From NCBI GenBank assembly GCA_002483085.1, contig DLHF01000072.1, forward strand, positions 28,310 to 92,309: a stretch of 64,000 nt of DNA, in the 5' to 3' direction. Shown one piece after another: positions 34,816 through 60,223 of this stretch. A program made the position numbers and the translations under genes. A model generated the notes under the pieces. It was given only the letters and a program-made list of their open reading frames with translations. It had not been told where the DNA came from and did no database searches. Within the stretch, counting starts at the first letter, position 1, and each line of letters begins with the position of its first letter. The DNA comes from Ignavibacteria bacterium UBA7675 (GTDB lineage Bacteria > Bacteroidota > Ignavibacteria > Kapaibacteriales > UB7675).

Positions 34816-34855
34816 ACAACAGTGGTTTTATAAAAACAATATTCATAAGTGAACT

Positions 34856-35878: not shown

Positions 35879-35909
35879 TTTTTTCTTCTTACAGCAGTAG
35901 GAAACACTC

Positions 35910-36584: not shown

Positions 36585-36639
36585 AAGCTGGCACCAGAGA
36601 AGCTATCAAGTACCGCCACAGGAGGAAAGCGGATCGATC

Positions 36640-36852
36640 TCCTGTGGCACACGCCCGGCATTGCGCGGCGCAGTTCTCTATACAATTCACTCTGCACCGA
36701 GGGCTTGGCCTCCGCACCGCGCTGCACAACTGATGCGTGTTTACCAGCCTTCAGCGCCCGGCATTGCGCGGGTACAGTGCGAACAGCACACCGGCGGATG
36801 TGCGACCGGTGATAGCAGCTATCAGCACGAACTCCACGCCCGTGCCACAACA
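36640..36852 (+). repeat. Three-box intergenic repeat, copy 5 (composite, with an inverted box3 at its 5' end)
   Basis: tgtggcacacgccc at 36643-36656 (inverted box3), box1 ctccgcaccgcgctgcacaactgatgcgtg at 36710-36739, box2 tgcgaccggtgatagca at 36801-36817, and box3 cgcccgtgccaca at 36837-36849. gcccggcattgcgcgg occurs twice (36654-36669 and 36758-36773). Confidence 0.8.
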
Positions 36853-36967
36853 TCGCCCCGCGCACTCTGCCAACGCCTGCAGCACCTTCGGTAGCCAAAG
36901 CACACAACAGAATAGCGCACCCCGCCGAGTTCCCGCCAATGGGTTCGGTTTTTCCAATTCTTTTGAG

Positions 36968-36975
36968 TAATTTTG
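36968..36975 (+). promoter_or_regulatory. Bacteroidota-type -7 promoter element (TAnnTTTG)
   Basis: TAATTTTG lies 37 nt upstream of the E1 ORF start. This is consistent with transcription covering the long N-terminal extension. Confidence 0.4.
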
Positions 36976-37011
36976 CAGACTTGAATTCTAAAAACGAGTG
37001 ATTTCCTATAT

Positions 37012-45005: not shown

Positions 45006-46476
45006 AACGATTGCAGTGATTGGAGCAGGATTAGGCGGCTTGAGTGCTGCTGTGCGGCTCGCCCACAAGGGATACCGTGTACGCTTGTTTGAGCGCAACA
45101 GTACAGTCGGTGGCAAAATGAATATCCGCCTTGCCGGTGGCTACCGCTTCGACACTGGCCCCTCGCTGCTTACCATGCCATTTGTCGTCGACGAGTTGTT
45201 TGCTTCCTCGGGATTTCGCCGCGAAGACTTTTTTGAGGTTCTTCCCATCGACCCAATTTGCCGGTATTTTTACCCCGACGGCACTGTGCTCGATACCCAT
45301 GCAGATACCGAACGAATGATGCAAGCGCTCGCGGTAATATCGCCCCGCGATGCCGATGCCTATAAGCAGTTCCTGAAGTATGCCCAGCGCATCTACGACA
45401 CGACTGCCGAGGTATTCCTCTTTACGCCAATTCACGAATGGAAAGAACTGCTTCGAGCGCGCTATCTGCCTACCCTGTTCGGCCTACGCCATATCGACGC
45501 ATTGCGTACAGTACACCGCAGCGTGTCGTCTTTCTTCAGCGACCCGCGTATCGTCCAGCTTTTCGACCGTTATGCTACCTACAATGGTTCTGATCCCTTC
45601 CGCGCACCCGCTACGCTCAATATCATTCCATATGTAGAATATGGATTAGGCGGCTACTACATACGCGGAGGAATGTACCGGCTTGTGGACGCACTAGTGG
45701 AAATTGCCGTCCGGCTCGGCGTGGAAATCTACACAAATGCCGCTGTGGAGCGCATTCTGCACAATAATGGCCGTGCGACAGGAGTATTAACAGATGGTCA
45801 GCCCATCGCCGCTGATGCAGTGATCTGCAATGCAGATGTCGTAGTAGCTCACAGCGAGCTGCTTGATATTCCACAGCGTGCAGAAAAACTCCGGGCACTC
45901 GAACCATCCATTTCCGGCATGGTCTTCCTCTGGGGAGTGCAAAAAAGTCATGCGGGGCTCGCACATCATAATATTATTTTTTCCAGCGACTACAGGCGGG
46001 AATTCACACAAATATTCGACCAGCACGCGGCGCCAGACGACCCTACGATATACATATCTATCACCGCAAAAACAGATCCTGACCACGCGCCTCCCGGCTG
46101 CGAGAACTGGTTTGTGCTGGTCAATATGCCTTACCTTGCACAGGGACAGGACTGGGCAACAATCGTGGCAACAATGCGAGCAACTGTTCTGGCCAAACTA
46201 CAACAAAACGGACTCGACATAGAAGAGCATATAGCACAGGAAGAAGTATTTACACCCGAGGACTTTTTCTCATTGTACGGAAGCAATCGCGGCAGCATTT
46301 ACGGGATTTCTTCCAACAGCCGGATGACAGCATTCAAGCGCCCGTCCAACCGCAGCAGAGACATTGCGGGATTGTTTTTTGCAGGTGGCTCTACCCATCC
46401 CGGCGGTGGCGTTCCCCTCGTATTGCTTTCCGGCAGCATGGCTGCCGACATGGCGAATACATACTGCACACTATAG
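44998..46476 (+). CDS. Phytoene-desaturase-family FAD oxidoreductase, CrtD-like (candidate 3,4-desaturase)
   Basis: Dinucleotide fold IAVIGAGLGGLSAAVRLAHKGYRVRLFE and a C-terminal FFAGGSTHPGGGVP motif. It is the second CrtI paralog in the cluster and overlaps crtYcd by 8 nt. Confidence 0.8.
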   Translation: MAKTIAVIGAGLGGLSAAVRLAHKGYRVRLFERNSTVGGKMNIRLAGGYRFDTGPSLLTMPFVVDELFASSGFRREDFFEVLPIDPICRYFYPDGTVLDTHADTERMMQALAVISPRDADAYKQFLKYAQRIYDTTAEVFLFTPIHEWKELLRARYLPTLFGLRHIDALRTVHRSVSSFFSDPRIVQLFDRYATYNGSDPFRAPATLNIIPYVEYGLGGYYIRGGMYRLVDALVEIAVRLGVEIYTNAAVERILHNNGRATGVLTDGQPIAADAVICNADVVVAHSELLDIPQRAEKLRALEPSISGMVFLWGVQKSHAGLAHHNIIFSSDYRREFTQIFDQHAAPDDPTIYISITAKTDPDHAPPGCENWFVLVNMPYLAQGQDWATIVATMRATVLAKLQQNGLDIEEHIAQEEVFTPEDFFSLYGSNRGSIYGISSNSRMTAFKRPSNRSRDIAGLFFAGGSTHPGGGVPLVLLSGSMAADMANTYCTL

Positions 46477-46601: not shown

Positions 46602-46775
46602 CTCAGCGGCAGTTGGAGAGGAATTGTGCAGCAGCTATACTGCACCTGCTCTTTTACTGGCAATCCCCCCCATTACACAAGGATAGAAGAACTCCCACTC
46701 TTGTGTGGCACAGGCGCTTCTACAGTTGTTTATATGGATAAAATTTACGGGAATGCTTGCTTCTAAACGCGGCCG

Positions 46776-46880
46776 ACGTCCTCGCATTTGTTACCGTAGG
46801 AACGGTGCGAGGACGAGCTTACGATAACTGCGACAGGTGACAGCGACTACACGGGCGCAACAGCGATGCCTGTGCTACAG
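46776..46880 (+). repeat. Three-box intergenic repeat, copy 6 (partial: hairpin + box2 + box3-like)
   Basis: Hairpin gtcctcgca (46778-46786) / tgcgaggac (46806-46814), tgcgacaggtgacagcg at 46829-46845, and gcctgtgctaca at about 46868-46879 (22 nt gap). Confidence 0.6.
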
Positions 46881-46901
46881 AAATACGCAAGTGAATGTAC
46901 T

Positions 46902-47000: not shown

Positions 47001-47321
47001 CTATATAGTAAACACAGCTCTACCAGTTGTAACAACGAGTCTGTTCGGCGGATTCGGCGGCGGCACCGGGCCGTTAAATCCGATGGCATACATTAGACCT
47101 TGGTAGATCACGCCTGTCACCACACAGCCTACGGGAATGGGCACATTAATCACAGTATTAGGCAAAAGGTTAAAAGGCCCGATCGGACCACAGCTTGTAG
47201 AAATGAACACATTGTTCACTACGACCGGAGTGCTATTACCGAGATAATACGCATGTGCTTCTTCGGTTGTACCAACCAAAGTCACAACAATAGCAAAAAT
47301 AAGACCGATAAGAATTTTCAT
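47001..47321 (-). CDS. Small secreted PPPN-motif protein, type A (2 Cys), copy A1
   Basis: Signal peptide MKILIGLIFAIVVTLVGTTEEAHA. Mature protein: YYLGNSTP...SCGPIGPFNL...GCVVTG...GPVPPPNPPNRL. GGGGAA SD-like box upstream. Confidence 0.8.
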   Translation of the reverse strand: MKILIGLIFAIVVTLVGTTEEAHAYYLGNSTPVVVNNVFISTSCGPIGPFNLLPNTVINVPIPVGCVVTGVIYQGLMYAIGFNGPVPPPNPPNRLVVTTGRAVFTI

Positions 47322-47392
47322 AATGGATTCCCCAAAATAAAGAATGTATAAAAAAGGAATAGAGAACTACATTTGGACAAGCGCGGAAGTAT

Positions 47393-47716
47393 TTATAAGA
47401 ATACTGCTCTTGCAGGCGTTACGATCAGTCTATTGGGCGGATTCGGAGGAGGTGCCGGACCATCGTACCCAACCGGGAAAAACATCATTTGGTAGATAAT
47501 ACCAGTTACTGTACAAACGGCTGGAATCGCCACCGGCGTTACAGTACCAGCGGGCAGATTATACGGACCAAATGGTCCACAGGAAGTTTGTATATACACA
47601 CCTGCTACGGCAGCGGGGCTACTATTGCCCAGATAGTATGTAATTGCTTTTGCTTCGGTTGCAGCACCAAGCACCACAAGAAGAATAGCACAGACAAGCC
47701 CACTAATAAATTTCAT
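47393..47716 (-). CDS. Small secreted PPPN-motif protein, type A, copy A2
   Basis: Signal ...GAATEAKA, then YYLGNSSP...SCGPFGPYNLP...VCTVTG...GPAPPPNPPNRL. AGGAG upstream. Confidence 0.8.
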   Translation of the reverse strand: MKFISGLVCAILLVVLGAATEAKAITYYLGNSSPAAVAGVYIQTSCGPFGPYNLPAGTVTPVAIPAVCTVTGIIYQMMFFPVGYDGPAPPPNPPNRLIVTPARAVFL

Positions 47717-47762
47717 ATGAACTCCTACACGATAGAACTATAAAAAAGATTTTGCGACACAT

Positions 47763-47788
47763 GGCTCGATGTATTCGAGCCTTTTTCC
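47763..47788 (+). terminator. Orphan plus-strand hairpin + T-run inside the minus-strand array
   Basis: ggctcga (47763-47769) / tcgagcc (47775-47781) followed by ttttt. No plus-strand gene lies upstream closer than crtD-like. Confidence 0.35.
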
Positions 47789-47800
47789 TCTATGGAGCTG

Positions 47801-48154
47801 TTATTGAATTTCTGCACTGTCTATGCCAAACACACCAAACACAAGGAAGTTCGGGGGATTCGGCGGAACAATTGGTACAACCGTACCGGCGGGCTGAACT
47901 GGATAGAGATTGCCATTGACATCGATATCGGTGACAAAACATCCAGCGGGTACTGGCCATGTAAAGCACTGGCCGGGAACAAGCAGCATAGGGCACGGTG
48001 CAAGAGTTGTGCTTATGCCACCGCAGTCGGCGATCAGGCACACATTAACTGCAACCGGGCTGCTATTGCATATAGTATAATTTTGCGCCTTTACAGCAGC
48101 CGAGCCGAACACGGCAAAGAGCATGGCGCAGAGAAGAGCACTGAAAAATTTCAT
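47801..48154 (-). CDS. Small secreted PPPN-motif protein, intermediate type (6 Cys), copy C1
   Basis: From the internal Met at 48154: MKFFSALLCAMLFAVFGSAAVKA | QNYTICNSSP...DCGG...APCP...QCFTWPVPAGCFVT...PPNPPNFL. The track ORF extends to 48400 and overlaps the next gene. Confidence 0.75.
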   Translation of the reverse strand: MKFFSALLCAMLFAVFGSAAVKAQNYTICNSSPVAVNVCLIADCGGISTTLAPCPMLLVPGQCFTWPVPAGCFVTDIDVNGNLYPVQPAGTVVPIVPPNPPNFLVFGVFGIDSAEIQ

Positions 48155-48210
48155 GATATAATCCTGATAAAAATTATACAAAGAAAAGAACTCATTCAGC
48201 CACAGAGCTG

Positions 48211-48564
48211 TTAGTTTGAAATATCTGCTCCGTTCAAGCCAAAACATATCCTGTTTGGAGGATTTGGAGGTGCAAGCGGTAGACAAACGCCAGGAGCTTG
48301 AATTGGATAGAGCGTACCATTGACACGAACAGCTACCGGAGCACATCCCACAGGTACAGTCCAGGTTTGTCCTACCCCCGTAGCAAGCGACACGGAGCAT
48401 GGAGCAAGTAGAGAAAGGATACCGCCGCAGTTAATTTGCAGACAAACACTAACAGTAGTACCGGGACTGGAATTCCAGACCGTATAAGGAGTTTGTGCCT
48501 GCGTGCTCGACGAGCCGAGCACAGCAAAGAACAGAGTGCAGAGAAGACTGATAAAAATCTTCAT
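48211..48564 (-). CDS. Small secreted PPPN-motif protein, intermediate type (6 Cys), copy C2
   Basis: MKIFISLLCTLFFAVLGSSSTQA | QTPYTVWNSSP...NCGG...APCS...VGCAPV...APPNPPNRICF. An alternative start lies 3 codons upstream at 48573. Confidence 0.75.
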   Translation of the reverse strand: MKIFISLLCTLFFAVLGSSSTQAQTPYTVWNSSPGTTVSVCLQINCGGILSLLAPCSVSLATGVGQTWTVPVGCAPVAVRVNGTLYPIQAPGVCLPLAPPNPPNRICFGLNGADISN

Positions 48565-48675
48565 AGAATACATACAACTAAAGATGAAAAAATGACACTA
48601 TGCCACATAGACAGACTGGTTCTCCACAAAAGAAGCACACATACGATCTCTATGTGAGCTATAAACACCCGAACA

Positions 48676-49032
48676 CTACCGTATTACCACCTGCACAACA
48701 GCAGCTCCACCGGAGTAGCAAACCCAGTTGGGCGGTGGTGCAGCTACAGGATAACAAAACGGGAAAGCAGCGGGCACTGGATAAAAAACACCGTTTACTC
48801 TTGTGCCCGACACCACACAGCCTGTAGGCACATTCCAGGTAAAGCACGCACCCGGCGCAATGAGAGCAGGGCAAGGTGCAAGAGTACCTACAACTCCACC
48901 ACAGTTCACATGAATACAAACAGCTACTGCTACTGTAGAGTTATTGCAGACAGCATAGATTTGCGCCTGTGCACTGATCGAACCGAGAGCAGTGAGCAGA
49001 ATCGCACAAAGAAAAGCACTAAAAAATTTCAT
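48676..49032 (-). CDS. Small secreted PPPN-motif protein, type B (8 Cys), copy B1
   Basis: MKFFSAFLCAILLTALGSISAQA | QIYAVCNNST...NCGG...APCPALIAPGACFTWNVPTGCVVSG...PFCYPVAAPPPNWVCY. Confidence 0.8.
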   Translation of the reverse strand: MKFFSAFLCAILLTALGSISAQAQIYAVCNNSTVAVAVCIHVNCGGVVGTLAPCPALIAPGACFTWNVPTGCVVSGTRVNGVFYPVPAAFPFCYPVAAPPPNWVCYSGGAAVVQVVIR

Positions 49033-49140
49033 ACTTATTCCTAATGATGGCAGTGATTAAAATTTATCGATAGAATATTCTTCTCGTACACACCGAGAGC
49101 CTGCACGGCGTGCGTACAGGCTCTCGAAAAGAAAACAGGC

Positions 49141-49494
49141 CTATTGAATACGAACCTGAGGCACTCCTCCGGTATAGCATACCCAATTGGGCGGAGGTGC
49201 TGCTACAGGATAGCAAAACGGGAAAACAGCGGGCACTGGATAAGCCACACCATTCACTCGTACACCTGTTACCACACAAGCTGCGGGAACATTCCAAGTA
49301 AAGCATGCACCGGGTGGGATCATCGCCGGGCAGGGAGCGAGAAATGCCACGGCGCCACCACAATTGACGCGCACACATACTGATACTGGAACATTAGAAT
49401 TATTACAAACAACATACGGTTGTGCCTGTGCATCAGGCGTTGGGCTGAGCACAGCAAAAAGTATTGCGCAAATAGCGCCAATGAAAAATTTCAT
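49141..49494 (-). CDS. Small secreted PPPN-motif protein, type B, copy B2
   Basis: Signal ...PDAQA | QPYVVCNNSN...NCGG...APCPAMIPPGACFTWNVPAACVVTG...PFCYPVAAPPPNWVCY. AGGAG upstream. Confidence 0.8.
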   Translation of the reverse strand: MKFFIGAICAILFAVLSPTPDAQAQPYVVCNNSNVPVSVCVRVNCGGAVAFLAPCPAMIPPGACFTWNVPAACVVTGVRVNGVAYPVPAVFPFCYPVAAPPPNWVCYTGGVPQVRIQ

Positions 49495-49645
49495 AATAGC
49501 TCCTAAAAAATAATAATGATGAATTGTGTTTTCCCCTGATACAGCGCTGGCTGATAGATATCAATCTCGTCTCCCTGATGCCAGCAACAAGGAAATAAAA
49601 GCCTGAGCGAACAATCCGCCCAAACTTCCCAGCACAGCAAAAATT

Positions 49646-50014
49646 CTACCGGATAATCACCTGAGGTACACCACCTGTATAGCATACCCAGTTCGGCGGA
49701 GGTGCGAGCACACCATAGCAAAACGGTATAGCAGCGGGCACGCCATAGAAGACACCGCCAACAGTAACGCCTGTTACAACACAAGCAGCCGGAACTGGCC
49801 ATGTAAAGCATCCGCCGGGCGGAATAATAGCAGGACAAGGGCCAATATTGACAATCACACCACCACAATTGGCCTGAAGGCACACAGCTACTGGAACTGT
49901 GGTATTATTACACACTGTGTACGGCTGTGCCTGCACGGACTCTGTAGCCGCAATGCTCAGCACCATGATGAAGGCTGCAACAAGTAGCCCTGTGAGTTTG
50001 TTGACAAATTTCAT
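49646..50014 (-). CDS. Small secreted PPPN-motif protein, type B, copy B3
   Basis: Signal ...ATESVQA | QPYTVCNNTT...NCGG...GPCPAIIPPGGCFTWPVPAACVVTG...PFCYGVLAPPPNWVCY. Confidence 0.8.
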   Translation of the reverse strand: MKFVNKLTGLLVAAFIMVLSIAATESVQAQPYTVCNNTTVPVAVCLQANCGGVIVNIGPCPAIIPPGGCFTWPVPAACVVTGVTVGGVFYGVPAAIPFCYGVLAPPPNWVCYTGGVPQVIIR

Positions 50015-50620
50015 AAAAAACCCCTAATGAAGAGTAAATGAAAAATGGGAAATGGGAACCTGCTGCAAGGCTTCCCCGGCCAAGCAACAACCGATACAAT
50101 AGAGTATCAGCTTGGGAATTCATGAGACTGCGGATAACAGCAATAGTAAGGAGCGGAACAAAATCCAGTAAAAATTTGGTACATGCGTGGGAACACCTAA
50201 TAAATTTCCAGACAACGGTGAACCACCGGTTCTGTGTGTGGATTGCGAGGTGTTGTCTACCACTGAGTACTCTCTGTATAACAAGATTTTGCACTATTGC
50301 TGTTGATATACAATAGAGAGTTGCACACTGCTGTACAACCCTCTGTTGAAATTGGACATGCAACTCCAGCACGGCAAACAAGAGCATACACAAACAACAC
50401 ATAGAGCAATGGACATTGCCTCGTGCTGTCTGTGTATCTCGCCCTCATATTTTCTACTTGCTATGAAAAACATCGGGTACATAGTTCACTGTGCATAGAG
50501 TGTTGCAGAAATCGTGTCATTGCCGAGTTGGCTTTGACTCTTTATACAATGCTTAACTAATGGCCACAATGAAGCACTTGCGCTCTTTTGCAATTGCACA
50601 AATGCCCGCGCCGCCATGTA

Positions 50621-50941
50621 CTACCAGAATGTAGCGCCATTCGGCGTTACCGTAACACCATTCGGCGGATTAGGCGGAGGAACAGGACCTGTATAGCCTA
50701 TAGGAAAGAATGCACCGCGAAACATAATTCCCGTTACTCTACAATTGGCAGGAATTGGGATGTTAATTGTCGCAGGGCCTGCAGGAAGGTTAAAGGGGCC
50801 GAATGGACCACAGGTCGTCCGGATAATAATACCATTCACCGGGACAGGCGTGTTGTTGGTTAGGAAATACGCCTGTGCGTCTGTTGTCGTACCGACAACT
50901 GCAAAAAGAATAGCGCACAAAATACCTACAAGCAGTTTCAT
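50621..50941 (-). CDS. Small secreted PPPN-motif protein, type A, copy A3
   Basis: From the internal Met at 50941: MKLLVGILCAILFAVVGTTTDAQA | YFLTNNTP...TCGPFGPFNLP...NCRVTG...GPVPPPNPPNGVTVT. GGGGAG upstream. Confidence 0.8.
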   Translation of the reverse strand: MKLLVGILCAILFAVVGTTTDAQAYFLTNNTPVPVNGIIIRTTCGPFGPFNLPAGPATINIPIPANCRVTGIMFRGAFFPIGYTGPVPPPNPPNGVTVTPNGATFW

Positions 50942-51454
50942 ATGATCTCCCCGAAACGATGGAAAAACAATTAATAAATAAACACCATCTATTGGTGTAG
51001 CGACTGCACAATGCCGATGTACAAAGAGGCGGCACCGCATTGTTTCTACAGGTAACGCCTTTGCCCTTTACAAAGCATTATCAGATATCCACGAACAGGG
51101 CTTGGCACATCATACCCCAGAAGTCTCTAACTTGATTGCTGCACGGTGCAGGTGTAGCCGCAAGCGCAAGTAGTCCTTGAATATGGGCTTATCCGTTATC
51201 AAGTGATCCAGCAGTATTTTCTGCTGTACCTTCTCCACTTGGCATCAGAAGTCTCTGATGCCAATAATCCAACTATATATAAATACCACTCATACCATAA
51301 GTGCCGCAGCTTACTCCCCTGTCGCGGCCCTTACTATACTAATAGTGCATGTACGAACCTCACAGCATGCTGTCTACCAGGAGGTGCAGGAATCATGTGA
51401 TTGCCGCAGAATACTATTACAACTTTGCAACTGCGTAAATGTCCATATCGCAGC

Positions 51455-51775
51455 CTACCAAAATGTAGCACCGGTGGAGGTTACCGTAACACCATTCGGC
51501 GGATTAGGCGGAGGCACAGGACCCGAATAGCCTACGGGAAAGAACATCCCGCTGTACAGGATACCTCCCACGTTACAACTAGTCGGAATGGGAACGTTAA
51601 TTGAGCTAGGCCCCGGGGGAAGGTTAAAAACCCCAAATATACCGCAGCTCGTCCGGATCTGAATGCCATTCACTGGCGCCGATGTGCTGTTGGTAAGGAG
51701 GTACGCATGTGCGTCTGTTGTTGTACCAACAACTGTAAAAAGAACAGCACACAAAATGCCTACAAGCAGTTTCAT
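51455..51775 (-). CDS. Small secreted PPPN-motif protein, type A, copy A4
   Basis: From the internal Met at 51775: MKLLVGILCAVLFTVVGTTTDAHA | YLLTNSTS...SCGIFGVFNLP...SCNVGG...GPVPPPNPPNGVTVT. GGGGAA upstream. Confidence 0.8.
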   Translation of the reverse strand: MKLLVGILCAVLFTVVGTTTDAHAYLLTNSTSAPVNGIQIRTSCGIFGVFNLPPGPSSINVPIPTSCNVGGILYSGMFFPVGYSGPVPPPNPPNGVTVTSTGATFW

Positions 51776-52215
51776 ATTATTTCCCCGATAGGATAAAAAA
51801 AGGTTTATGAACATGCCACTATCAATTATTAGTGTGGCAACTATGCAATGCCGATGTTCCTTCTCCAAATGGTATCGGAAGACCCCAATACCAATATTCC
51901 AACTCCATATAAATATCTCTCATACCATAGACACGGCAACGCATTCCCCTGCCGTAGTTGTCGGTACACTGCTGCTGTGCGACAACTACCCTTTCCCGTA
52001 CCAAATTACAGAGCACCGCAGCAAATTGATATAGGAGCATGGCGGATTCGGAAGTAAGAAGATCACCGTTTTAGCAGTAGGAAATTGTCCGATATGCCTA
52101 TCGGAAAATTCTTACTCTTCAGTCTTTAACATCAGCTTTTTAGCTACGCTCCGGAACGAACTCGCAAGAAGCTGTGTTATAGCCACGGATTTCCAACAAC
52201 ATCCCAGTGAGAGTT

Positions 52216-53745
52216 ATGCACAGTATTGCAGTAGTAGGTTCGGGGTTTGGCGGTCTGGCAGCAGCTATACGACTTCAAGCCCGGGGATTTCAGGTGACAA
52301 TTTTCGAGAAAAATGAGCGCGTAGGTGGCCATGCGTCGCAGCTCGTAAAGAATGGCTATACATTCGACATGGGCCCTTCGCTTATTACTGCTCCCGATAT
52401 TATTCGCAGTGTGTTTGCAAGCGCGGGGCGGCGCATGGAGGACTACCTCGATCTTATACCATTAGACCCGTACTACCGCATTTACTTCCACGACGGTACG
52501 TTTATCGACTACACAGGCGACGCCGATAGAATGAAGCAAGCAATGGCGCAGTTCCATCCTGGCGATGCTGCTGCCTACGACCAGTTCATGGCCCACACTC
52601 GCAAGATTTACGACGCCGTTATTACCGATGGCCTAGGAGCTACGCCGTTTATGGACCTTGGTACAATGGCGAGCTTTCTGCCAAAAGCGCTTCGTCTGGG
52701 AGCTCTCAAACCCGCCTACTCATTTGTAAAAAAATATTTTAAGGATGCACGCCACCGCTTCTGCTTCTCTTTTCATCCGCTGTTTATAGGTGGCAATCCT
52801 TTCCGCGCTCCGTCGGTGTACCTGATGATACCGTATTTAGAAAAAGCAGGCGGAGTGTGGTTTACCACCGGCGGTATGTACTCGCTCGTGCAAGCGTTCC
52901 AGCGCTTATTTACAGAGCTCGGCGGCACTATCAAAACATCATCGGAAATACAACGCATACTCGTGAGCAATGGCCGTGCATGTGGTGTAGAAACAATATC
53001 GGGCGAACAATTCGCCTCCGATGCCGTGATTTCCAATGCCGATATTGTCCATACCTACAGCGATCTCATCGCTCCGGAACAGCGCCGTAAATGGTCGGAT
53101 CGGCGCCTGCATTCTACTAAGTATTCCATGAGCGCCTTCCTGCTGTACATCGGCGTAAAAAAACAATACCCGCAGTTGCTCCACCATACGCTGATACTCT
53201 CAGAGCGATACCGCGAGCTCGTGTACGATATATTCGACCGGCACATTCTGCCCGAGGATTTCTCCATGTACCTGCACGTGCCTACTCGCACCGATCCGGC
53301 AATGGCGCCGCCCGGCTGCGAAAGCATGTACGTACTAGTACCAGTTGCCAATCTCGCGTCGGGAACAAATTGGGAAACGACAAAACACACCTATGGCGAG
53401 CGTCTGCTCGACTTTCTGGAAAAAGATTTTGGCATGGAAGACCTGCGCGCAAACATCGAAGTGTTGGAACTATTTACGCCCGATGATTTCCGCACAGAGC
53501 GCAATTCCTTCCTCGGCAGCGCATGGGGCGTAGAGCCGCATTTACTGCAAACTGCTTATTTCCGACCGCACAATCGCAGTGAAGATATCGAGCGCCTGTA
53601 CTTTGTGGGAGCAGGCACTCATCCCGGCGCAGGAGTTCCGGGCGTGCTTCTTACTGCCGAAGCGACAGAAAAGGTACTGCTCAGCGATTTTGCCGCACAC
53701 GCAGGAATTCCGGCTTCATCGGTCGGAGCAGAAAAAGCGAGATAA
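52216..53745 (+). CDS. crtI: Phytoene desaturase
   Basis: IAVVGSGFGGLAAAIRLQARGFQVTIFEK dinucleotide fold, full-length CrtI-type sequence and a C-terminal YFVGAGTHPGAGVPGV motif. A GTG at 52207 is an alternative start. Confidence 0.9.
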   Translation: MHSIAVVGSGFGGLAAAIRLQARGFQVTIFEKNERVGGHASQLVKNGYTFDMGPSLITAPDIIRSVFASAGRRMEDYLDLIPLDPYYRIYFHDGTFIDYTGDADRMKQAMAQFHPGDAAAYDQFMAHTRKIYDAVITDGLGATPFMDLGTMASFLPKALRLGALKPAYSFVKKYFKDARHRFCFSFHPLFIGGNPFRAPSVYLMIPYLEKAGGVWFTTGGMYSLVQAFQRLFTELGGTIKTSSEIQRILVSNGRACGVETISGEQFASDAVISNADIVHTYSDLIAPEQRRKWSDRRLHSTKYSMSAFLLYIGVKKQYPQLLHHTLILSERYRELVYDIFDRHILPEDFSMYLHVPTRTDPAMAPPGCESMYVLVPVANLASGTNWETTKHTYGERLLDFLEKDFGMEDLRANIEVLELFTPDDFRTERNSFLGSAWGVEPHLLQTAYFRPHNRSEDIERLYFVGAGTHPGAGVPGVLLTAEATEKVLLSDFAAHAGIPASSVGAEKAR

Positions 53746-53916
53746 GGCGCTTCGCTCTCCGTTCTGGCGCTTTGTCTCTGCACCGCGCAGCACCGCCGCC
53801 GCGTGGCCGCCCGGCCTCAACCGCATTACTTGGCGCCAGGCAGCCGGGCAACAGATAAGCGGGTCCTGCGACCGGTGACAGCGACCGGGCTCCCGGGCAA
53901 AAACGCCCGTGCCATA
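53746..53916 (+). repeat. Three-box intergenic repeat, copy 7 (complete reference copy)
   Basis: Leader ggcgcttcgctctccg at 53746-53761, box1 ctctgcaccgcgcagcaccgccgccgcgtgg at 53776-53806, box2 tgcgaccggtgacagcg at 53867-53883, and box3 cgcccgtgcca at 53904-53914. It starts immediately after the crtI stop. Confidence 0.85.
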
Positions 53917-53980
53917 TAGCTCAACATGTTTGATTGATAATTTCACAAGAAGCCATTAACGGTGTGTACTGGTAAATACT

Positions 53981-54898
53981 ATGCAATTCTGGAAAGAAGA
54001 CCACTGTAAGCTCGACTTCGAGCACGCGCGCAGGCTGACGGCGTTCTACTCGCGCAGCTTTTACTTTTCGGCGTGTGTATTGCCGCGCAATGAACGCTGG
54101 GCAACGTTTGCTGTGTATGCTTTTTGCCGCTACAGCGACAACCTGATCGACAACCCTCGCGAACGCTCACAGCAAGAGCTCGTGCAGGAGCTCGACATGC
54201 TTGCCGAAGAGCTGCACACAGCCTACCGCACAGGCGAGTCGGAACACCCCATTGTACGGCCTTTTATTATTGCAGCTCGACGCTATGGCATTCCATTAGA
54301 ATATCCGCTCGACTTGATAAAAGGCGTGCAGATGGACCTTACGCACAAGCATTACGACACATTCGGCGAGCTCTCGGTGTTCTGCTATCGCGTGGCAGCA
54401 GTGGTAGGGCTGATGATGACTCATGTGCTGGGCTACAGGCACGACTCCGCCTTCGACTATGCTGCACAGATGGGCATTGCTATGCAGCTTACGAATATCC
54501 TGCGCGATATCAGCGAAGACAAAGACCGAGGCAGAATTTATTTACCACGCGAGGAAATGCAGCAGTTTGGCGTCGCCATAGGAGATATTATAGGTGAACG
54601 TATGACACCGCAACTGCGCGAACTCATGAAGTTCCAAGCAGAACGTGCCCACCAGTATTATGGCCAAGCGCAGGAAGGTATTGCTCTTCTGCCCGTCAAT
54701 ACACAATTTGCTATCTATTCGGCGAGCAAGATATACAGAGGTATTCTGCACAGGCTTGAATTGCGCGACTACAATCCGTTTCTCGGGCGCGTTTTTGTAT
54801 CGCAGAGCACCAAAGTTGGAATTCTTCTGCGCGAAGTTCTGCGCTCGAAAGCTTTGTCGCTCCAAGAGCGTCTACACGCGTTCTCGCCAGCCAGATAA
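53981..54898 (+). CDS. crtB: Phytoene synthase
   Basis: Squalene/phytoene synthase fold: YAFCRYSDNLID (first Asp-rich region) and NILRDISEDKDRGRIYLP (second). Confidence 0.9.
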   Translation: MQFWKEDHCKLDFEHARRLTAFYSRSFYFSACVLPRNERWATFAVYAFCRYSDNLIDNPRERSQQELVQELDMLAEELHTAYRTGESEHPIVRPFIIAARRYGIPLEYPLDLIKGVQMDLTHKHYDTFGELSVFCYRVAAVVGLMMTHVLGYRHDSAFDYAAQMGIAMQLTNILRDISEDKDRGRIYLPREEMQQFGVAIGDIIGERMTPQLRELMKFQAERAHQYYGQAQEGIALLPVNTQFAIYSASKIYRGILHRLELRDYNPFLGRVFVSQSTKVGILLREVLRSKALSLQERLHAFSPAR

Positions 54899-54931
54899 CA
54901 AACGAGTGCGCGCATTCTGCAACAAAAAACA

Positions 54932-55645
54932 ATGATGATACAGGCCCGACACAGCCGCACGGCAGAGCGTATTTTTGAAGTCTATCTACGCTCTCTGTTC
55001 CGCCGCCATTTCCATTCGCTTGCTCTGCTGGGCGACATACCGGCTGTGCACAGCGAGCTGCCCGTCCTGCTGCTTCCTAACCACAGCACATGGTGGGACG
55101 GATTTTTTGCCTTTGCGCTGAATAAGCAGCTCTTCAAGCGGCCTTTTTACCTGATGATGCTCGAAGAGCAATTACAAAAGTATCGTTTTTTTACGCGGTT
55201 GGGTGCGTACTCCGTTCGCCCGGGCTCCCCGCGCTCAGTAGCCGAAACTCTTCAGTACACGGCTTCGGTACTCAGCGGGCAACCACCGCCGCTTGTGTGC
55301 ATGTTTCCACAGGGCGAGCTTCTTCCTTCGCATATTCGACCGCTGGGATACCGCCGTGGTGCAGAGCACATACTCACACGTGCAAAGGCTCCCCTTACCA
55401 TTGTCCCCCTGGCCATACGCTGTGAGTTTCTCGGCGAACAGCTTCCCGATGTTTTTTTCCTGTTTGGCTCTCCGCTTGTATGCAACGCTTCATCGGCGCC
55501 AAACGCCGAGCTTTTAGAAACAGTACAGCACAACCTGCTGGCCGACCTCCAACAACGCATCATTGCAGGCGAACGGGGGCACACTCTGCTCAAGGGTGGT
55601 GTATCAATCAACAGCGTTGTCGACGTGCTGCGCCGAAAAAAGTAA
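54932..55645 (+). CDS. Lysophospholipid-acyltransferase-family protein (possible carotenoid-glycoside acyltransferase, CruD-like role)
   Basis: HX4D motif NHSTWWD and an FPQGE motif. The carotenoid role is inferred only from its position directly after crtB. Confidence 0.65.
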   Translation: MMIQARHSRTAERIFEVYLRSLFRRHFHSLALLGDIPAVHSELPVLLLPNHSTWWDGFFAFALNKQLFKRPFYLMMLEEQLQKYRFFTRLGAYSVRPGSPRSVAETLQYTASVLSGQPPPLVCMFPQGELLPSHIRPLGYRRGAEHILTRAKAPLTIVPLAIRCEFLGEQLPDVFFLFGSPLVCNASSAPNAELLETVQHNLLADLQQRIIAGERGHTLLKGGVSINSVVDVLRRKK

Positions 55646-55721
55646 CATCGCGCATTGCAATGTTTCCGCTGCCCAACGTATTTTCCGCTCCCAACACTGA
55701 TGTATCACAAGAACAACAACA

Positions 55722-56378
55722 ATGAAAGCTGTTATTTTTGACATGGACGGTGTGCTGGTCGACAGCGAGCCTTTGTATATCAGCATGAACCAAAAGTTCT
55801 TCCGCGAGCTCGGTGCCGATATTTCGATGGAAGAACACCAGGCATTTGTTGGTATTTCCGCCGTCGCTATGTGGAGCTTCATCCGCGAAAAATTTGCGCT
55901 CTCTGCTACTGTGGAGGAACTGGTTCACAGAGAAAAAGAATTGAAATTTCAGCTTCTACAAGAATCGAATCTGCAAGCGATAGAAGGCACACCCGAACTA
56001 CTGGCAGTTCTGCGCGACAGCGGTGTTCCTCTCGCTCTTGGCACTTCTTCTCTGAGAAAAAACGCCGATCTGATACTCGGCACCATTGGTCTGCTGCCAT
56101 ACTTTGATGTACGAACAACAGGCGAAGAGATAAAGCGCGGCAAACCCAATCCCGATGTATTCCTGCTGGCTGCCGAAAAGATGAACCGAGCTCCACAGGA
56201 GTGTATTGTTGTCGAAGATTCGGCAAATGGAGTAAAGGCCGCAAAAGCCGCAGGAATGATATGTATAGCTTTTCGCAATCCCAACTCTGGCTATCAGGAT
56301 ATCAGCGCTGCGGATTATATCGTGGAGGATTTTGGCAGCCGCACAAGAGAGTTTATTACAAGGTTGTGTGCCCGTTAA
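55722..56378 (+). CDS. HAD-IA family hydrolase (beta-phosphoglucomutase-like)
   Basis: Motif I is FDMDGVLVDSE. GTSS, K...GKPNP and EDSANG(V) supply motifs II-IV. Confidence 0.85.
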   Translation: MKAVIFDMDGVLVDSEPLYISMNQKFFRELGADISMEEHQAFVGISAVAMWSFIREKFALSATVEELVHREKELKFQLLQESNLQAIEGTPELLAVLRDSGVPLALGTSSLRKNADLILGTIGLLPYFDVRTTGEEIKRGKPNPDVFLLAAEKMNRAPQECIVVEDSANGVKAAKAAGMICIAFRNPNSGYQDISAADYIVEDFGSRTREFITRLCAR

Positions 56379-56468
56379 ACCAGCCCAGCGCCGTGCATTG
56401 ATAGAAAGAGCAGAACTACTCAGCGTTGCCCCGGTGCGTTTACCAATCTATTATTTCGTCCAACCAAC

Positions 56469-56493
56469 AAAAAAAGCCCGCTCTGAGGCGGGC
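56469..56493 (-). terminator. Intrinsic terminator after the deoxyhypusine-synthase-like gene
   Basis: Minus strand: gcccgc-ctcaga-gcgggc followed by T7. Confidence 0.75.
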
Positions 56494-56518
56494 CGTATAA
56501 ACCTATTACGACAGCACA

Positions 56519-57493
56519 TTACCAGCCGAGCAACCACGCAAAAATCAGCGGTGCTACAATAGTAGCGTCCGACTCAATCACGAATTTTGGCGTGTTGATG
56601 TCGAGCTTACCCCACGTAATTTTTTCGTTGGGCACAGCGCCAGAGTACGAGCCATAGCTCGTTGTCGAGTCGGAAATCTGGCAAAAGTAGCTCCAGAACG
56701 GCACATCGTGCATTTCCATATCTTGATACAGCATCGGCACCACGCAGATCGGGAAATCGCCTGCAATACCGCCGCCTATCTGGAAAAAGCCAATGCCCTT
56801 GCCACCGGAGTTTTTCGTGTAGTAGTCGGCCAGCCACACCATGTACTCAATACCGCTTTTCATGGTCGAGGGCAGAAGCTCGCCCTTGATACAGTACGAA
56901 GCAAAAATATTACCCATTGTGGAGTCTTCCCAGCCCGGGCAGATAATCGGCAGATTGCGCTCGGCAGCGGCAATCATCCAGCTATCCTTTGGGTCGATCT
57001 CGTAATATTGCTCCATCTCGCCGGAAAGCAGCATTTTGTACATGTATTCGTGCGGTAAATACCGCTCGCCACTGTCGTTGGCCTGCTTCCACAATTTGAA
57101 AATGTGCTTCTGTATGCGGCGGAAAGCTTCTTCCTCCGGAATACAAGTGTCGGTAACGCGGTTAAAGCCGTTTTCCAGCAGTTCCCACTCATCTTGTGGG
57201 CTCAAGTCGCGGTAGTGCGGCACGCGCTTGTAGTGCGAATGCGCTACAAGGTTCATAATATCTTCTTCGAGGTTAGCGCCGGTGCACGAGATAATGTCCA
57301 CCTTGCCCTGCCGGATCATTTCGGCAAGCGATTTGCCGAGCTCGGCTGTGCTCATTGCGCCCGCAAGCGTTACCATCATCTTACCGCCTTCGGCCAGATG
57401 CGTTTCGTAGCCTTTCGCTGCATCGACAAGTGCCGCTGCATTGAAGTGCTTGTAATGATGTTCGATAAACTGGGAGATCGGTCCTCTGGTCAT
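56519..57493 (-). CDS. Deoxyhypusine synthase-like protein
   Basis: 324 aa with the DHS-family pattern (MVTLAGAMSTAELG, IISCTGANLEEDI, GGGIAGDFP). Confidence 0.85.
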   Translation of the reverse strand: MTRGPISQFIEHHYKHFNAAALVDAAKGYETHLAEGGKMMVTLAGAMSTAELGKSLAEMIRQGKVDIISCTGANLEEDIMNLVAHSHYKRVPHYRDLSPQDEWELLENGFNRVTDTCIPEEEAFRRIQKHIFKLWKQANDSGERYLPHEYMYKMLLSGEMEQYYEIDPKDSWMIAAAERNLPIICPGWEDSTMGNIFASYCIKGELLPSTMKSGIEYMVWLADYYTKNSGGKGIGFFQIGGGIAGDFPICVVPMLYQDMEMHDVPFWSYFCQISDSTTSYGSYSGAVPNEKITWGKLDINTPKFVIESDATIVAPLIFAWLLGW

Positions 57494-57602
57494 TGCAGTT
57501 CGTAGGATAACAATGCAATAAGAGCGCGCGGCTTACACCGGCGGCGGATTAAGCTGCAAAATTACGCCCGAAAATGTTCCTCCCAAAGAAGAATCGCTGA
57601 TA

Positions 57603-57700
57603 GGTGGCACAGCCGTCTTTGCGGCGCACGGCGCGGCGCTGTCACCGGTCGCACAATCGGAGCGTGAAGTTCGCCCTTCTGCGCCCTGCTGATGTTCTGC
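57603..57700 (-). repeat. Three-box intergenic repeat, copy 8 (partial: box3-like + box2)
   Basis: ggtggcacagcc at 57603-57614 and cgctgtcaccggtcgca at 57637-57653 (22 nt gap). Confidence 0.7.
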
Positions 57701-57818
57701 ATTCCCCTATAGCTCGTTGCCAATACTTCCGCCCCACTCCGCATTACATCACCACTCCGCTTGGCTCAGTCGCCACCTTTTTGCACTTTTGTAGCACTTT
57801 TTCCTCTATGGAGCATTT

Positions 57819-58583
57819 ATGACAGCAACAGGACAACACTTCAAAGACCTCTTTTCCCGGCAGTCGGCAGTGTACAGGCAGGCTCGCCCGGGCTATCCAG
57901 ATAGCCTGTTTCGCTGGCTGGCCTCACTCGTACCAAAAGACGCTACCCTGTGGGACTGTGCTACGGGCAATGGGCAAGCTGCGGTATCGCTTGCTCAATA
58001 TTTCCCACATATTATCGCTACTGATGCCAGCGAGGAGCAGATACGCAATGCTGTGGCTCACAACCGCATCAGCTATCGCGTCGCTCCTGCCGAACACAGC
58101 GGCCTACCCGATAGCTCCGTAGACCTTATCACCGTGGCCACCGCCGCGCACTGGTTCAACCACGACGCTTTTTACCAAGAGGTACACCGCGTGCTGAAGC
58201 CCGGTGGCGTGCTCGCACTCTGGACATACCACAGCACTACTATTGCGCCCGATATCGACGCCGTTGTAGCTCGCTACGAAACAGGCATATTAGATGGCTA
58301 CTGGGCCAAAGAAATACGGCATGTAGCCAATCGCTATACAACGCTCCCCTTTCCGTTTCCCCTGATAGATACACCTGTGCTACAAAGCCAGGTACTTTGG
58401 ACATTAGAACAACTGGCGGGATTCTTCATGAGCTGGTCGGCTACACAACACTATATAGCTCTCAACCGCTCAAACCCCCTCGATCTTATAATGCCCGCGC
58501 TGCAAAGCGTGTGGGGCGACCCCAGCCAGAAACGCGATGTGGCTTGGAATTTGGCGATCAAAGCAGGACGAAAACTGCCATAA
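57819..58583 (+). CDS. Class I SAM-dependent methyltransferase
   Basis: Motif I is LWDCATGNGQAA, with an acidic residue after beta-2 (IATDAS) and LKPGGVLALW as post-II. Confidence 0.8.
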   Translation: MTATGQHFKDLFSRQSAVYRQARPGYPDSLFRWLASLVPKDATLWDCATGNGQAAVSLAQYFPHIIATDASEEQIRNAVAHNRISYRVAPAEHSGLPDSSVDLITVATAAHWFNHDAFYQEVHRVLKPGGVLALWTYHSTTIAPDIDAVVARYETGILDGYWAKEIRHVANRYTTLPFPFPLIDTPVLQSQVLWTLEQLAGFFMSWSATQHYIALNRSNPLDLIMPALQSVWGDPSQKRDVAWNLAIKAGRKLP

Positions 58584-58766
58584 TTCTCTCCAAACGGGAA
58601 CCAGATGCACAAGGGCTGTTGTTTTTGGTGCTTCTCTGCTATCGGGAACAATTCACAGTCTACAGGCCGTTTGAGGAATAAAGCTACAGAGACGAGGAGC
58701 TCAGATCGAGCAGCTCAATGTAGCTGGGCGGGTAACAGCGGCAGCGCACAATGCTGTACAGAAGGA

Positions 58767-59465
58767 ATGATGAATACTTATAGGATAAAACTACTTGCGT
58801 TGTATCTGTTGCTCATAGCGGGGGGATTGTGGCATGTGCTGCATGTATTTCAGCATACAATGCAGGTGCTCGCTGTTCCGATGATCGTTGGTATCAGCCT
58901 GTGGCTTGCCTACGAATACTGGCATTTATACGCTCTTCCTCTGCTTATCGACACTCAATCACCGCGCCTGCGACAGAGGAATTTTGCGCTGTGGTGCATA
59001 GGCGTAGTAGCAGCGGGAATTGGCGTAGAAGCCCTTGGCGTGCGCACCGGCTTGGTATTTGGGCACTACGAGTATGGCAGTCTCCTTGCGCCGTTCATAG
59101 GCCCGGTGCCGCTGGCCATTGGTTTTGCTTGGCTTGGCATGATGCTGTGCTCTGTTGCCATTGTCACCCGCTCAACACCGCGCTCCCTGCGCCTCAACCC
59201 ATTTGCCGGTGCGCTGATGACCGCTCTGTTTATGATGATTTTTGACGTTCTGATGGAGCCCGCAGCAATAGCTCTCGGCTATTGGCACTGGTTTGGCGAA
59301 AGCATCCCGCTACAAAATTATATCGCCTGGTTTGGCGTGAGCTTTGTCTTTGCCTACATAGGCTTTCGGCTCCAATTGTTCGCAGGAAAAGCCCCGCTTG
59401 TAGCTCTCCACGCCTATTTTGCACAGGCATTGTACTTTGCGCTTGTAGCCATAGGAGCCTCATGA
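58767..59465 (+). CDS. cruF: Carotenoid biosynthesis membrane protein, DUF422 / CruF-like (candidate carotenoid 1',2'-hydratase)
   Basis: Polytopic membrane protein with GLVFGHYEYG and FDVLMEPAAIALGYWHW motifs, which I remember from the CruF/DUF422 family. Start chosen at the MMNTYR Met pair. Confidence 0.7.
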   Translation: MMNTYRIKLLALYLLLIAGGLWHVLHVFQHTMQVLAVPMIVGISLWLAYEYWHLYALPLLIDTQSPRLRQRNFALWCIGVVAAGIGVEALGVRTGLVFGHYEYGSLLAPFIGPVPLAIGFAWLGMMLCSVAIVTRSTPRSLRLNPFAGALMTALFMMIFDVLMEPAAIALGYWHWFGESIPLQNYIAWFGVSFVFAYIGFRLQLFAGKAPLVALHAYFAQALYFALVAIGAS

Positions 59466-60223
59466 AACCACATGATACTACCACAGGTCTCGCTCTGGCC
59501 TTTGCTCTTCTCAGCCTCTGGCTCGCCAGCCTCATCTGGCTTCTTTCCGCCGATCTCAATCACTTTTCTCTCGCCTTCATCCCTGTAGCATTCCTTCTGC
59601 AAACATTTCTCTATACTGGCCTCTTTATTACCGCACACGACGCTATGCACGGCACAGTAGCGCCCGGCTATCCAGCGCTCAACCGAGCTATTGGCAGTGT
59701 AGCTATTGTGCTGTACGCGCTCTTCGACTACCGACACCTACAGGCCAAGCATTTTGAACACCACAGGCACCCCGCACGCGAAGGCGATCCAGACTACCAC
59801 GATGGTCGGCACACGGGCTTTATGCGGTGGTACGCGCATTTTATGCTCGGCTATATGTCGTGGCGCCAGATAGTAGGCATGGCCATTGCGTTCAATATCC
59901 TCCACCATCTCGCAGGTATTCCACTCAGCAATCTGCTGCTATTTTGGGTAGCGCCTGCCCTGCTGAGCACCGCCCAGCTTTTTTACTTTGGCACGTATCT
60001 GCCTCACCGCCAGCCCGCCGAAGGCTACGGCAATCCGCACCACGCCCGCAGCAGCAACTATTCCGCTGTGCTGTCGTTCCTCGCCTGTTACCATTTTGGC
60101 TATCACTACGAACACCACGACCATCCATCAGTACCCTGGTGGCGCCTGCCATCACTACGACAAAACACCCAACTCCGTAAACGAACTGTTGATAATTCCC
60201 CGCGCGACACTACAACTGCATAG
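59462..60223 (+). CDS. crtW: Beta-carotene ketolase
   Basis: Histidine boxes AHDAMHG, FEHHRHP and HYEHHDHPSVPWWRLP are collinear with the Paracoccus-type CrtW as I remember it. The ATGA overlaps the cruF-like stop. Confidence 0.85.
   Translation: MKPHDTTTGLALAFALLSLWLASLIWLLSADLNHFSLAFIPVAFLLQTFLYTGLFITAHDAMHGTVAPGYPALNRAIGSVAIVLYALFDYRHLQAKHFEHHRHPAREGDPDYHDGRHTGFMRWYAHFMLGYMSWRQIVGMAIAFNILHHLAGIPLSNLLLFWVAPALLSTAQLFYFGTYLPHRQPAEGYGNPHHARSSNYSAVLSFLACYHFGYHYEHHDHPSVPWWRLPSLRQNTQLRKRTVDNSPRDTTTA

Follow-up and report, generated by a model that had tools for sequence, protein, structure and literature searches.

Intergenic repeats built from two inverted homologous arms in Ignavibacteria bacterium UBA7675 and its close relatives

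REPINs are doublets of REP (repetitive extragenic palindromic) sequences that form hairpins and occur with RAYT transposases (Bertels and Rainey 2011, PMC3116915; PMC5581495; PMC8049555), by which they are recognised (PMC3116915, PMC5581495); the REP itself is distinguished by an unpaired GTAG or CGTC tag at one end of its palindrome (PMC3733652). The subject of this report is a repeat family in a 64,000 nt stretch of the genome of Ignavibacteria bacterium UBA7675 (contig DLHF01000072.1, positions 28,310 to 92,309 of the forward strand), referred to throughout as the window. The element is 150-200 nt long and consists of two related arms of about 55 nt each, in inverted orientation around a centre of about 35 nt with a small hairpin (GUGR...YCGC). 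Its copies are strictly intergenic, dense and present in both orientations; they decay to single arms, their loci are gained and lost between related species, and their conserved blocks, here called boxes, outlast the linkers between them. In organisation the family is REPIN- or ERIC-like, and it is best explained as a lineage-specific, non-coding mosaic interspersed repeat that would be spread in trans by an arm-recognising enzyme, a reading to which a probability of roughly 0.55 is given; membership in either class is not established, the arms being unlike REPs, target-site duplications being absent and terminal repeats being inconsistent.

The ERIC (enterobacterial repetitive intergenic consensus) elements of Enterobacteria, also called IRUs (intergenic repeat units), are imperfect palindromes of about 127 bp, for which, as for the present family, no transposase is known. 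The present family resembles them as an imperfect palindrome of 130-190 nt, intergenic, often transcribed and found in both orientations, with size variants created by insertion at fixed internal sites, with truncated copies and with high sequence conservation across species; sequence and phylum are unrelated, however, and the palindrome is far less perfect here, the comparison being one of descriptions and not of consensus sequences. A modular build in which copies hold different subsets of modules (here in the order leader, optional GC hairpin, box1, optional middle block, box2-box3) is also found in BOX of Streptococcus pneumoniae and in the BIMEs (bacterial interspersed mosaic elements) of E. 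coli, but the modules of the present family are two inverted homologous arms instead of three unrelated boxes, and the sequences are unrelated. Like the Correia or NEMIS elements of Neisseria, which are miniature inverted-repeat transposable elements (MITEs), the copies are short, non-coding and dispersed, have inverted ends and often adjoin gene ends; they differ from these in that no target-site duplication was found, that few copies carry the outermost inverted terminus, and that they are old and divergent instead of near-identical.

Loci and architecture

A preliminary description of this DNA had reported a repeat of about 170 nt with a leader and three boxes, and the existence of such a family is borne out by box counts far above chance. 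Within the window, the box2 17-mer has seven sites with up to three mismatches (0.15 expected), the box1 31-mer four with up to three (0 expected), the box1 core GCACCGCGCWGCA eight with up to one (0.49 expected), and box3 seven with up to two (1.9 expected). The leader by itself is at chance level (three sites in the window versus 0.74 expected, a number equalled by 6 of 100 shuffles). Two covariance models were built from multi-genome alignments of copies, R1 spanning box2 to box3 (module 2) and R2 comprising leader, box1 and apical region (module 1), and the whole window was searched with filters off. Ten loci, A to J, resulted, six on the + strand and four on the - strand. Every locus listed previously is among them, including a "possible" decayed copy near 11780-11910, which turned out to be real (locus I, 11852-11897, - strand, E = 4e-6); locus J, directly before gatC (1341-1404, + strand, E = 5e-11), is new.

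All ten loci are intergenic, as had been claimed (P = 1.6e-9, tested within the window against a curated gene map by which 13% of it is intergenic), and they occupy 16% of its intergenic bases. Their GC content is 62%, that of the remaining intergenic DNA 45% and that of coding DNA 50%. The reported abutment on stop codons likewise stands: copy A begins one base past the TAA of crtI, and copy B one base past the TAG of a gene for a protein of 478 amino acids (aa). Several copies (A, E, J) directly follow stop codons within probable operons; overall, the gene contexts are co-directional, convergent and divergent, and the copies lie in either orientation. The features are as follows.

Copy A, left arm (module 1): 53744-53827, + strand; R2 69.6 bits, E = 1e-20.
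Copy A, leader GGCGCTTCGCTCTCCG: 53746-53761, and box1: 53776-53806, + strand; from sequence reading.
Copy A, apical hairpin: + strand; GTGG at 53803-53806 (5' side) pairs with CCGC at 53821-53824.
Copy A, middle block of the long form: 53829-53862, + strand.
Copy A, right arm (module 2): 53855-53919, + strand; R1 63.9 bits, E = 4e-14.
Copy A, box2: 53867-53883; variable segment: 53884-53898; box3: 53904-53914; + strand.
Copy B: 19780-19928, + strand, in a convergent intergenic region; leader from 19760, with a GC-hairpin insert; module 1 at 19780-19862, R2 E = 1e-16.
Copy B, degenerate module 2: 19863-19928, + strand; R1 E = 0.03.
Copy C, complete long form: 27823-27999, - strand, antisense to both flanking + strand genes.
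Copy C, module 2: 27823-27888, R1 E = 1e-14, and module 1: 27913-27999, R2 E = 5e-17; - strand.
Copy D, left arm only: 34029-34104, + strand, in a divergent intergenic region; R2 E = 8.5e-18.
Copy E, the most complete copy: 36634-36852, + strand; covariance-model span 36679-36852.
Copy E, left terminus TGTGGCACACGCC: 36634-36646, + strand.
Copy E, module 1: 36679-36759, + strand; R2 E = 5e-15.
Copy E, module 2, ending in GTGCCACA: 36789-36852, + strand; R1 E = 5.5e-13.
Copy F: 46704-46882, + strand, in a convergent intergenic region; its interior is unrelated to the other copies and holds a 10 bp hairpin.
Copy F, left terminus and leader TGTGGCACAGGCGCTTC: 46704-46720, + strand; terminus score 20.1, inverted box3 at 46704-46716.
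Copy F, module 2: 46817-46882, + strand; R1 E = 1.6e-12.
Copy G, right arm: 2579-2644, - strand; R1 67.8 bits, E = 4e-15; a remnant of the middle block extends up to about 2672; downstream of a 1462 aa gene, past a terminator-like hairpin.
Copy H, right arm only: 57600-57665, - strand, upstream of a deoxyhypusine-synthase-like gene; R1 64.1 bits, E = 3.8e-14.
Copy I, decayed left arm (box1 core and apical region): 11852-11897, - strand, in a divergent intergenic region; R2 E = 4e-6, nhmmer match 11850-11966.
Copy J, right arm: 1341-1404, + strand; R1 E = 4.8e-11; box3 runs into the probable ATG of gatC, the GatC domain beginning at residue 50 of the long open reading frame (ORF).

In copy E, the module 1 part is flanked by a 17 nt direct repeat, CGCCCGGCATTGCGCGG (36650-36666 and 36755-36771), which may mean that a nested insertion or local duplication took place within the copy.

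The family extends to relatives of the organism. Their contigs L052, L053, L054, L065 and L066 were examined, and a scan of metagenomes with a degenerate box1 pattern gave eight true contigs, all of sample Ga0196964, together with two chance matches in coding DNA. L052, L053, L054, L066 and the eight Ga0196964 contigs yielded 18 module 1 copies (R2) and 13 module 2 copies (R1), and an nhmmer search of the relatives' loci agrees closely with both models. The density in the window, one locus per 6.4 kb, is similar or higher in L052, L053 and L066; this suggests a few hundred copies per genome, a figure that is extrapolated and not counted.

The boxes had been taken for three independent blocks, which they are not: leader and box1 together are homologous to the reverse complement of box2 and box3. 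In the alignment consensus the left arm reads GCGCTTCnGTCTCTG-N12-GTCTCTGCACCGCGCWGCA; the right arm reads TGCGACCGGTGACAGCGAC-N12-14-CAGMGAYGCCCGTGCCACA, with conservation ending sharply after box3, and its reverse complement is TGTGGCACGGGCRTCKCTG-N12-14-GTCGCTGTCACCGGTCGCA. Module 1 in full runs from GCGCTTCnGTCTCTG through about 12 variable nt to GTCTCTGCACCGCGCWGCA, CAnCCGCCGCGTG, a loop (GTTCGGCCTC) and yCGCAG. The module 1 model matches module 2 copies on the opposite strand, in the window at 57604-57687 (copy H, E = 4.9e-5) and 1333-1401 (E = 0.003) and likewise in L052, L063, L053 and L064 (E = 8e-5 to 0.012), and none of the matches listed is a module 2 copy in forward orientation; the module 2 model in turn matches the reverse strand of module 1 in copy C (E = 0.08). 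Aligned with each other, module 1 and the reverse-complemented module 2 consensus share GTCTCTG-N12-GTCkCTG(T)CACCG..CGC, with a score of 19 versus a maximum of 18 in 500 shuffles, and each arm thus holds two GTCKCTG sub-repeats about 19-20 bp apart. From these opposite-strand matches and the consensus alignment it follows that the element is an inverted doublet of two homologous arms, and the loci previously listed as "box1 only" or "box2/3 only" are single arms. Between the arms there are also fixed differences (such as GCACCGCGCWGCA versus GTCACCGGTCGCA), so that all copies descend from an ancestor in which the two had already diverged.

The copies come in several forms. Short ones of about 150 nt, with the modules joined directly, are found in L056, L063, L064 and L066 (5306-5455); long ones of about 170-200 nt carry a middle block of about 45 nt (GGCCAACCGACA...CCGG) and comprise A, C and a copy in L057; in a third subtype (B, L052:2197, L054:2786) the leader contains an inserted GC hairpin. 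This hairpin, GCCGCCC-loop-GGGCGGC, shows compensated differences among copies (19780-19810 in the window, 2215-2245 in L052, 2815-2845 in L054). The conserved spacing that had been reported holds for one of the two intervals. Box2 and box3 are 19-22 nt apart in the window and in 18 of 19 aligned multi-genome copies (L059, omitted from that alignment, has a longer insert), while the distance from box1 to box2 is not constant in the family: it is 57-60 nt in the three complete copies of the window, about 25-30 nt in L056, L063 and L064, about 73 nt in L057 and about 130 nt in L066. Because short and long forms differ by the inserted middle block, the 57-60 nt interval is specific to the long form.

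Turnover and persistence among relatives

By their homologues, the crtI and E1 dehydrogenase products assign the window to the Kapabacteria/Ignavibacteria-like part of Bacteroidota; the proteins closest to them are only 78-86% identical and come from metagenome contigs. One of these, L065 (78% identity of the E1 protein), has no copy in 22 kb by either model, which restricts the family to a sub-clade. Within the latter, three loci are shared between species: the crtI-crtB spacer (copy A, L052:2197, L054:2786), the region upstream of the deoxyhypusine-synthase-like gene (H, L052:6219-6284, L053:14449-14512), where H and the L052 copy have in common the derived box3 variant GACGGCTGTGCCACC, and the region upstream of the E1 dehydrogenase gene (E, L066:2420-2671). 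Between H and L052:6219-6284 the boxes are about 91% identical, the variable segment and flank about 59%; between E and L066:2608-2671 the values are about 85% for the boxes and about 30% for the variable segment, and the intergenic DNA adjoining E cannot be aligned at all. Generally, neighbouring intergenic DNA outside the element is alignable at the shared loci only where it is promoter-like.

Other loci come and go. In L053, crtI and crtB overlap and no element lies between them. In L066, a complete element follows the E1 gene (5306-5455) and a single arm follows a carboxyltransferase gene (488-552), neither with a counterpart in the window. After the acyltransferase gene, a module 1 copy is found in L052, L054 and L053, the last in the opposite orientation to the other two, where the window has just 76 nt.

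A further difference concerns three genes at 34131-36584, encoding a weakly TetR-like protein, an alpha/beta hydrolase and a 224 aa beta-rich protein with a signal peptide, which are bracketed by copy D (a left arm) on the left and copy E (complete) on the right. The block is absent from L066, where the same flanking genes are adjacent with one element between them. Recombination between two directly oriented copies would give this difference, and the arrangement fits such a step. D and E as ends of a composite transposon were considered and rejected, there being no transposase among the three cargo genes.

Ends, pairing and competing explanations

The inverted doublet with its single-arm remnants, the intergenic position in any orientation and gene context, the high GC content, the size variants, the turnover of loci and the persistence of copies together point to the known class of palindromic interspersed repeats; the preliminary description had set the family apart from a recently spread MITE, and the inverted-repeat architecture moves it back towards REPIN-like and other palindromic mobile repeats. 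According to the favoured explanation, the element is spread, perhaps still today, by an enzyme encoded elsewhere in the genome that would recognise the arms, the boxes being its recognition sequences, as in REPINs with their RAYT or in a MITE with its transposase. Copies would then persist for long periods and may serve as substrates for recombination, as for the three-gene block between D and E. Where they are transcribed, in operons or untranslated regions (UTRs), pairing of box1 with box2 and the apical hairpin may affect processing of the mRNA as a secondary effect.

The likeness to REPINs lies in the extragenic, high-copy inverted doublet with a spacer, in single arms as apparent remnants, in the restriction to a lineage with long life in related species, and in conserved recognition sequences beside variable spacers. 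The differences are considerable. Whereas a REP measures 20-40 nt and has its own palindromic core, an arm here is about 55 nt long, contains two sub-repeats and is interrupted by a variable segment of 12-14 nt; the divergence between left and right arm is fixed; and neither GTAG nor CGTC is present as a tag at the foot of a hairpin (CGTC occurs within GGGCGTC on the reverse strand of many right arms, which is not the foot of a REP-type stem). Nor are doublets better conserved than singlets, in what is a small sample.

Several observations weigh against a repeat spread by an arm-recognising enzyme. Of 22 left ends, only four (E, F, D and, weakly, L058) mirror the outermost 13 nt of the right end (CGCCCGTGCCACA), and the 22 taken together are not distinct from background (p = 0.08). 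E and F show no target-site duplication, and no transposase or RAYT was seen in the 64 kb of the genome and the short contigs of the relatives. Six copies searched without gaps gave no inverted repeat of 12 nt or more from one arm to the other, uninterrupted pairing of box1 with box2 extends over 5 bp at most, and hairpins are not consistently stabler than shuffled sequences. Further, the L052 and L054 copies at the locus of A have the leader hairpin, as does copy B elsewhere in the window, but A itself does not; conservation at one locus may thus partly reflect replacement of, or gene conversion among, copies. Finally, boxes conserved in place could equally mean a host function with zero mobility.

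This last alternative is the main rival, although an unlikely one. On this view an abundant protein of the chromosome, whether nucleoid-associated, topological or a global regulator, would bind the boxes as arrays of sites, which purifying selection would keep in place with a fixed helical spacing between sub-sites, and the copies would not be mobile at present. Nearly invariant boxes joined by linkers that vary in sequence while their length is constrained, the two GTCKCTG sub-repeats about 19-20 bp apart in each arm, the conservation of boxes at cross-species loci amid saturated neighbouring DNA, and the want of an RNA-structure signal or of a strand-specific tolerance for G-U would all be expected of it. 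It is harder to reconcile with the gene contexts of the copies, which are convergent (B, F, G, L066:5306-5455), divergent or co-directional, with no fixed orientation and unlike a promoter-linked regulon, with loci that come and go and can differ in orientation between close relatives, with the many half-elements, and with the 22 kb of L065 that hold none. The convergent positions likewise make operators of a regulon unlikely.

A further reading is doubtful: the boxes would be under purifying selection in place, across a divergence that saturates neutral intergenic DNA and for a reason other than RNA structure. The family would then be either one half, the repeat, of a previously undescribed partnership with an enzyme or host protein that is inherited vertically, or a new kind of domesticated multi-site element for chromosomal binding. 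Such a partnership would be an analogue of REPIN-RAYT in Kapabacteria, with the difference of long bipartite arms and hypervariable spacers of fixed length.

It is similarly improbable that the copies are an ordinary decayed MITE of a DDE transposon, with termini 5'-TGTGGCAC...GTGCCACA-3' (TG...CA) and subterminal transposase-binding repeats, most left termini having eroded. TG...CA termini with several subterminal binding sites are typical of Mu, Tn7, Tn402 and elements of the IS21/IS3 type, and the two sub-repeats per arm, the sharp right boundary of conservation ending in CACA and the presence of both termini at E and F and of the left one at D would suit such an origin; at D, the terminus is GGCATGGGCG, which precedes the copy as an inverted copy of the box3 terminus (score 11.1 versus a background 95th percentile of 3.8). 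The earlier statement that terminal inverted repeats are lacking accordingly needs qualification: the halves are inverted homologues, and typical copies, given that the mirrored terminus is confined to the four ends named, are indeed without a true outermost terminal repeat. As a general feature the latter is rejected, since it is missing at 18 of 22 left ends, which also speaks against the decayed MITE. The further statement that no target-site duplication is visible is upheld by the unlike flanks of E (TCTCC / ACATC) and F (CTTG / GAAAT). Filled and empty sites are too diverged between species to align, and clean empty sites are not recoverable in the intergenic DNA of the relatives.

Recent spread of a MITE had been discounted, correctly, as no two copies share linkers and the mean column identity is 65-72%; near-identical copies are not seen. 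No autonomous parent element with the same ends was found in the window or in the relatives' loci examined, Pfam named no transposase among 23 window proteins scanned, and a search of viral contigs and plasmids gave no match to the family. A scan of the genome collection with the box2 17-mer returned 50 single chance matches from unrelated phyla, this pattern being too short. Neutral decay of a MITE should not leave inner boxes 85-91% identical beside saturated linkers.

A structured RNA, cis-regulatory (in a 3' UTR or between cistrons) or a small RNA, in which box1 pairs with box2 and the boxes are RNA motifs, is quite improbable. Of the two natures proposed for the family before, structured RNA is not supported by the tests and multi-site protein binding fits best. 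The case for RNA begins with the fold itself: box1 is paired with box2 in the minimum-free-energy fold of copy C, and the consensus of 10 complete copies by RNAalifold (-15.7 kcal/mol) consists of an interrupted box1:box2 helix of 14 bp, a helix of 2 bp and the apical hairpin GUGR/YCGC. In this structure of 20 pairs, 94.5% of cells are paired, a value that falls to 20-48% when the partner is slid by 1-3 columns, so that the complementarity of box1 and box2 is real. The apical hairpin has one covarying pair, the fourth (AU 3, GC 3, GU 2, UG 1), and its stem is extended by copy-specific complements (GAAGG/CCUUC, GGAGU/ACUCC) that do better than permuted partners (p = 0.007); it is the only positive RNA signal. 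The location of A, E and J right after stop codons in probable operons would also suit an RNA.

Covariation, however, as judged by pair counting in the complete copies, is scarce: 10 of the 20 pairs are invariant and double changes occur in two only. The covariation score of 0.100 exceeds the shuffled mean of 0.066 and is reached by 11 of 500 column shuffles, a control known to be lenient. T to C changes in box2 (L066:5391-5455, copy B) are uncompensated in box1. In helix 1, four cells are G-U or U-G and nine are unpaired, the latter mostly C-A or A-C in the RNAalifold counts; as a C-A mismatch corresponds to a wobble on the other strand, no transcribed strand is preferred. The arms alone have essentially no consensus fold (-0.9 kcal/mol with six invariant pairs and -0.8 kcal/mol with two), and between the outer arms (leader and variable segment 1 versus variable segment 2 and box3) duplex energies within copies are no different from those between copies (p = 0.40). 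Folding z-scores are mixed, ranging from -2.6 to +1.8 with a mean of about -0.7 (L063 -2.3, L064 -2.6, L056 -1.2, L066:5314-5452 +1.8, window copies -0.2 to -0.9, with A, C and E also given as -0.3 to +0.4).

A comparison with Rfam, which the preliminary description had proposed, found no family: the window had no match at the gathering threshold, the reference copy (A) had none even at E <= 10, and eight contigs of the relatives gave chance-level matches only, outside the element. Copies also lie antisense to their flanking genes (C, L052:4179-4270) and in divergent regions. Further, half-elements incapable of forming the helix score as high with R1 (G 67.8 bits, H 64.1 bits) as complete copies do (C 66.4 bits, A 63.9 bits). 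As it is the sequence of the boxes that is conserved, and not their pairing, the boxes are taken as putative protein-recognition sequences, which they probably are; by analogy with the known systems they are most likely recognised by the enzyme that would copy the element.

Some narrower functions can be dismissed briefly. A sigma-54 promoter is rejected (of 19 copies, 12 have the -24 element TGGCAC on the box3 reverse strand and only two a correctly spaced GC, the -12 element), and so are intrinsic terminators and sigma-70 promoters, none being predicted inside B, C, D or E (region 19000-38000) and regional totals being at shuffle level, with Bacteroidota-type promoters outside the method. 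Variable segments as guides or antisense sequences have no second match in the window with up to two mismatches, and coding boxes are excluded by length changes of the variable segments that are not multiples of three and by a TGA in frame 1 of box2.

Neighbouring genes and significance

Other features of the window were noted as well. Four tandem ORFs for proteins of about 635-671 aa extend over 23954-32024 (+ strand), with copy C between the second and the third; no Pfam match at E <= 1e-5 was obtained for the three that were scanned. Repeats of 25-32 nt occur at matching offsets in the first and third, which are therefore probably paralogues. A tandem array of about nine paralogous small proteins of 106-199 aa (47001-51868, - strand) contains the repeat families D1-D4 and D8, and several of the proteins begin with a common segment, interpreted as a signal peptide; L053 has a comparable array of unannotated genes, for 107-130 aa, beside crtI (1284-6313). 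Two proteins of about 1450 aa (2786-7174, - strand; 13791-18092, + strand) have IgGFc_binding and ASH/HYDIN-type Ig-like domains and are probably secreted or surface-located. The carotenoid cluster at 52216-60223 comprises crtI, crtB, an acyltransferase gene, a gene with a Caroten_synth domain and a gene of the fatty-acid-desaturase type, and upstream of it lies a second gene of the amine-oxidase/desaturase type (44941-46476). The E1 dehydrogenase ORF (37012-39423) is extended at its N-terminus by about 100 aa in which Lys, Ala and Thr are frequent, and only the closest relatives have this extension (query coverage 100% versus about 85% in others).

In the literature, no interspersed repeat family was found for the Kapabacteria clade, whose members and relatives are known almost solely from metagenome bins. 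The family described here is a new one in a Kapabacteria-like bacterium and its close relatives; it belongs to a known kind of repeat and opens no new category. It fills about one sixth of the intergenic DNA of the window, separates crtI and crtB, which overlap in a relative, and borders a three-gene insertion or deletion, and is therefore of relevance to operon structure, genome rearrangement and the quality of assemblies in these bacteria. With conserved boxes beside saturated linkers, it offers a workable system for the persistence of repeats and a handle on the protein that recognises them.

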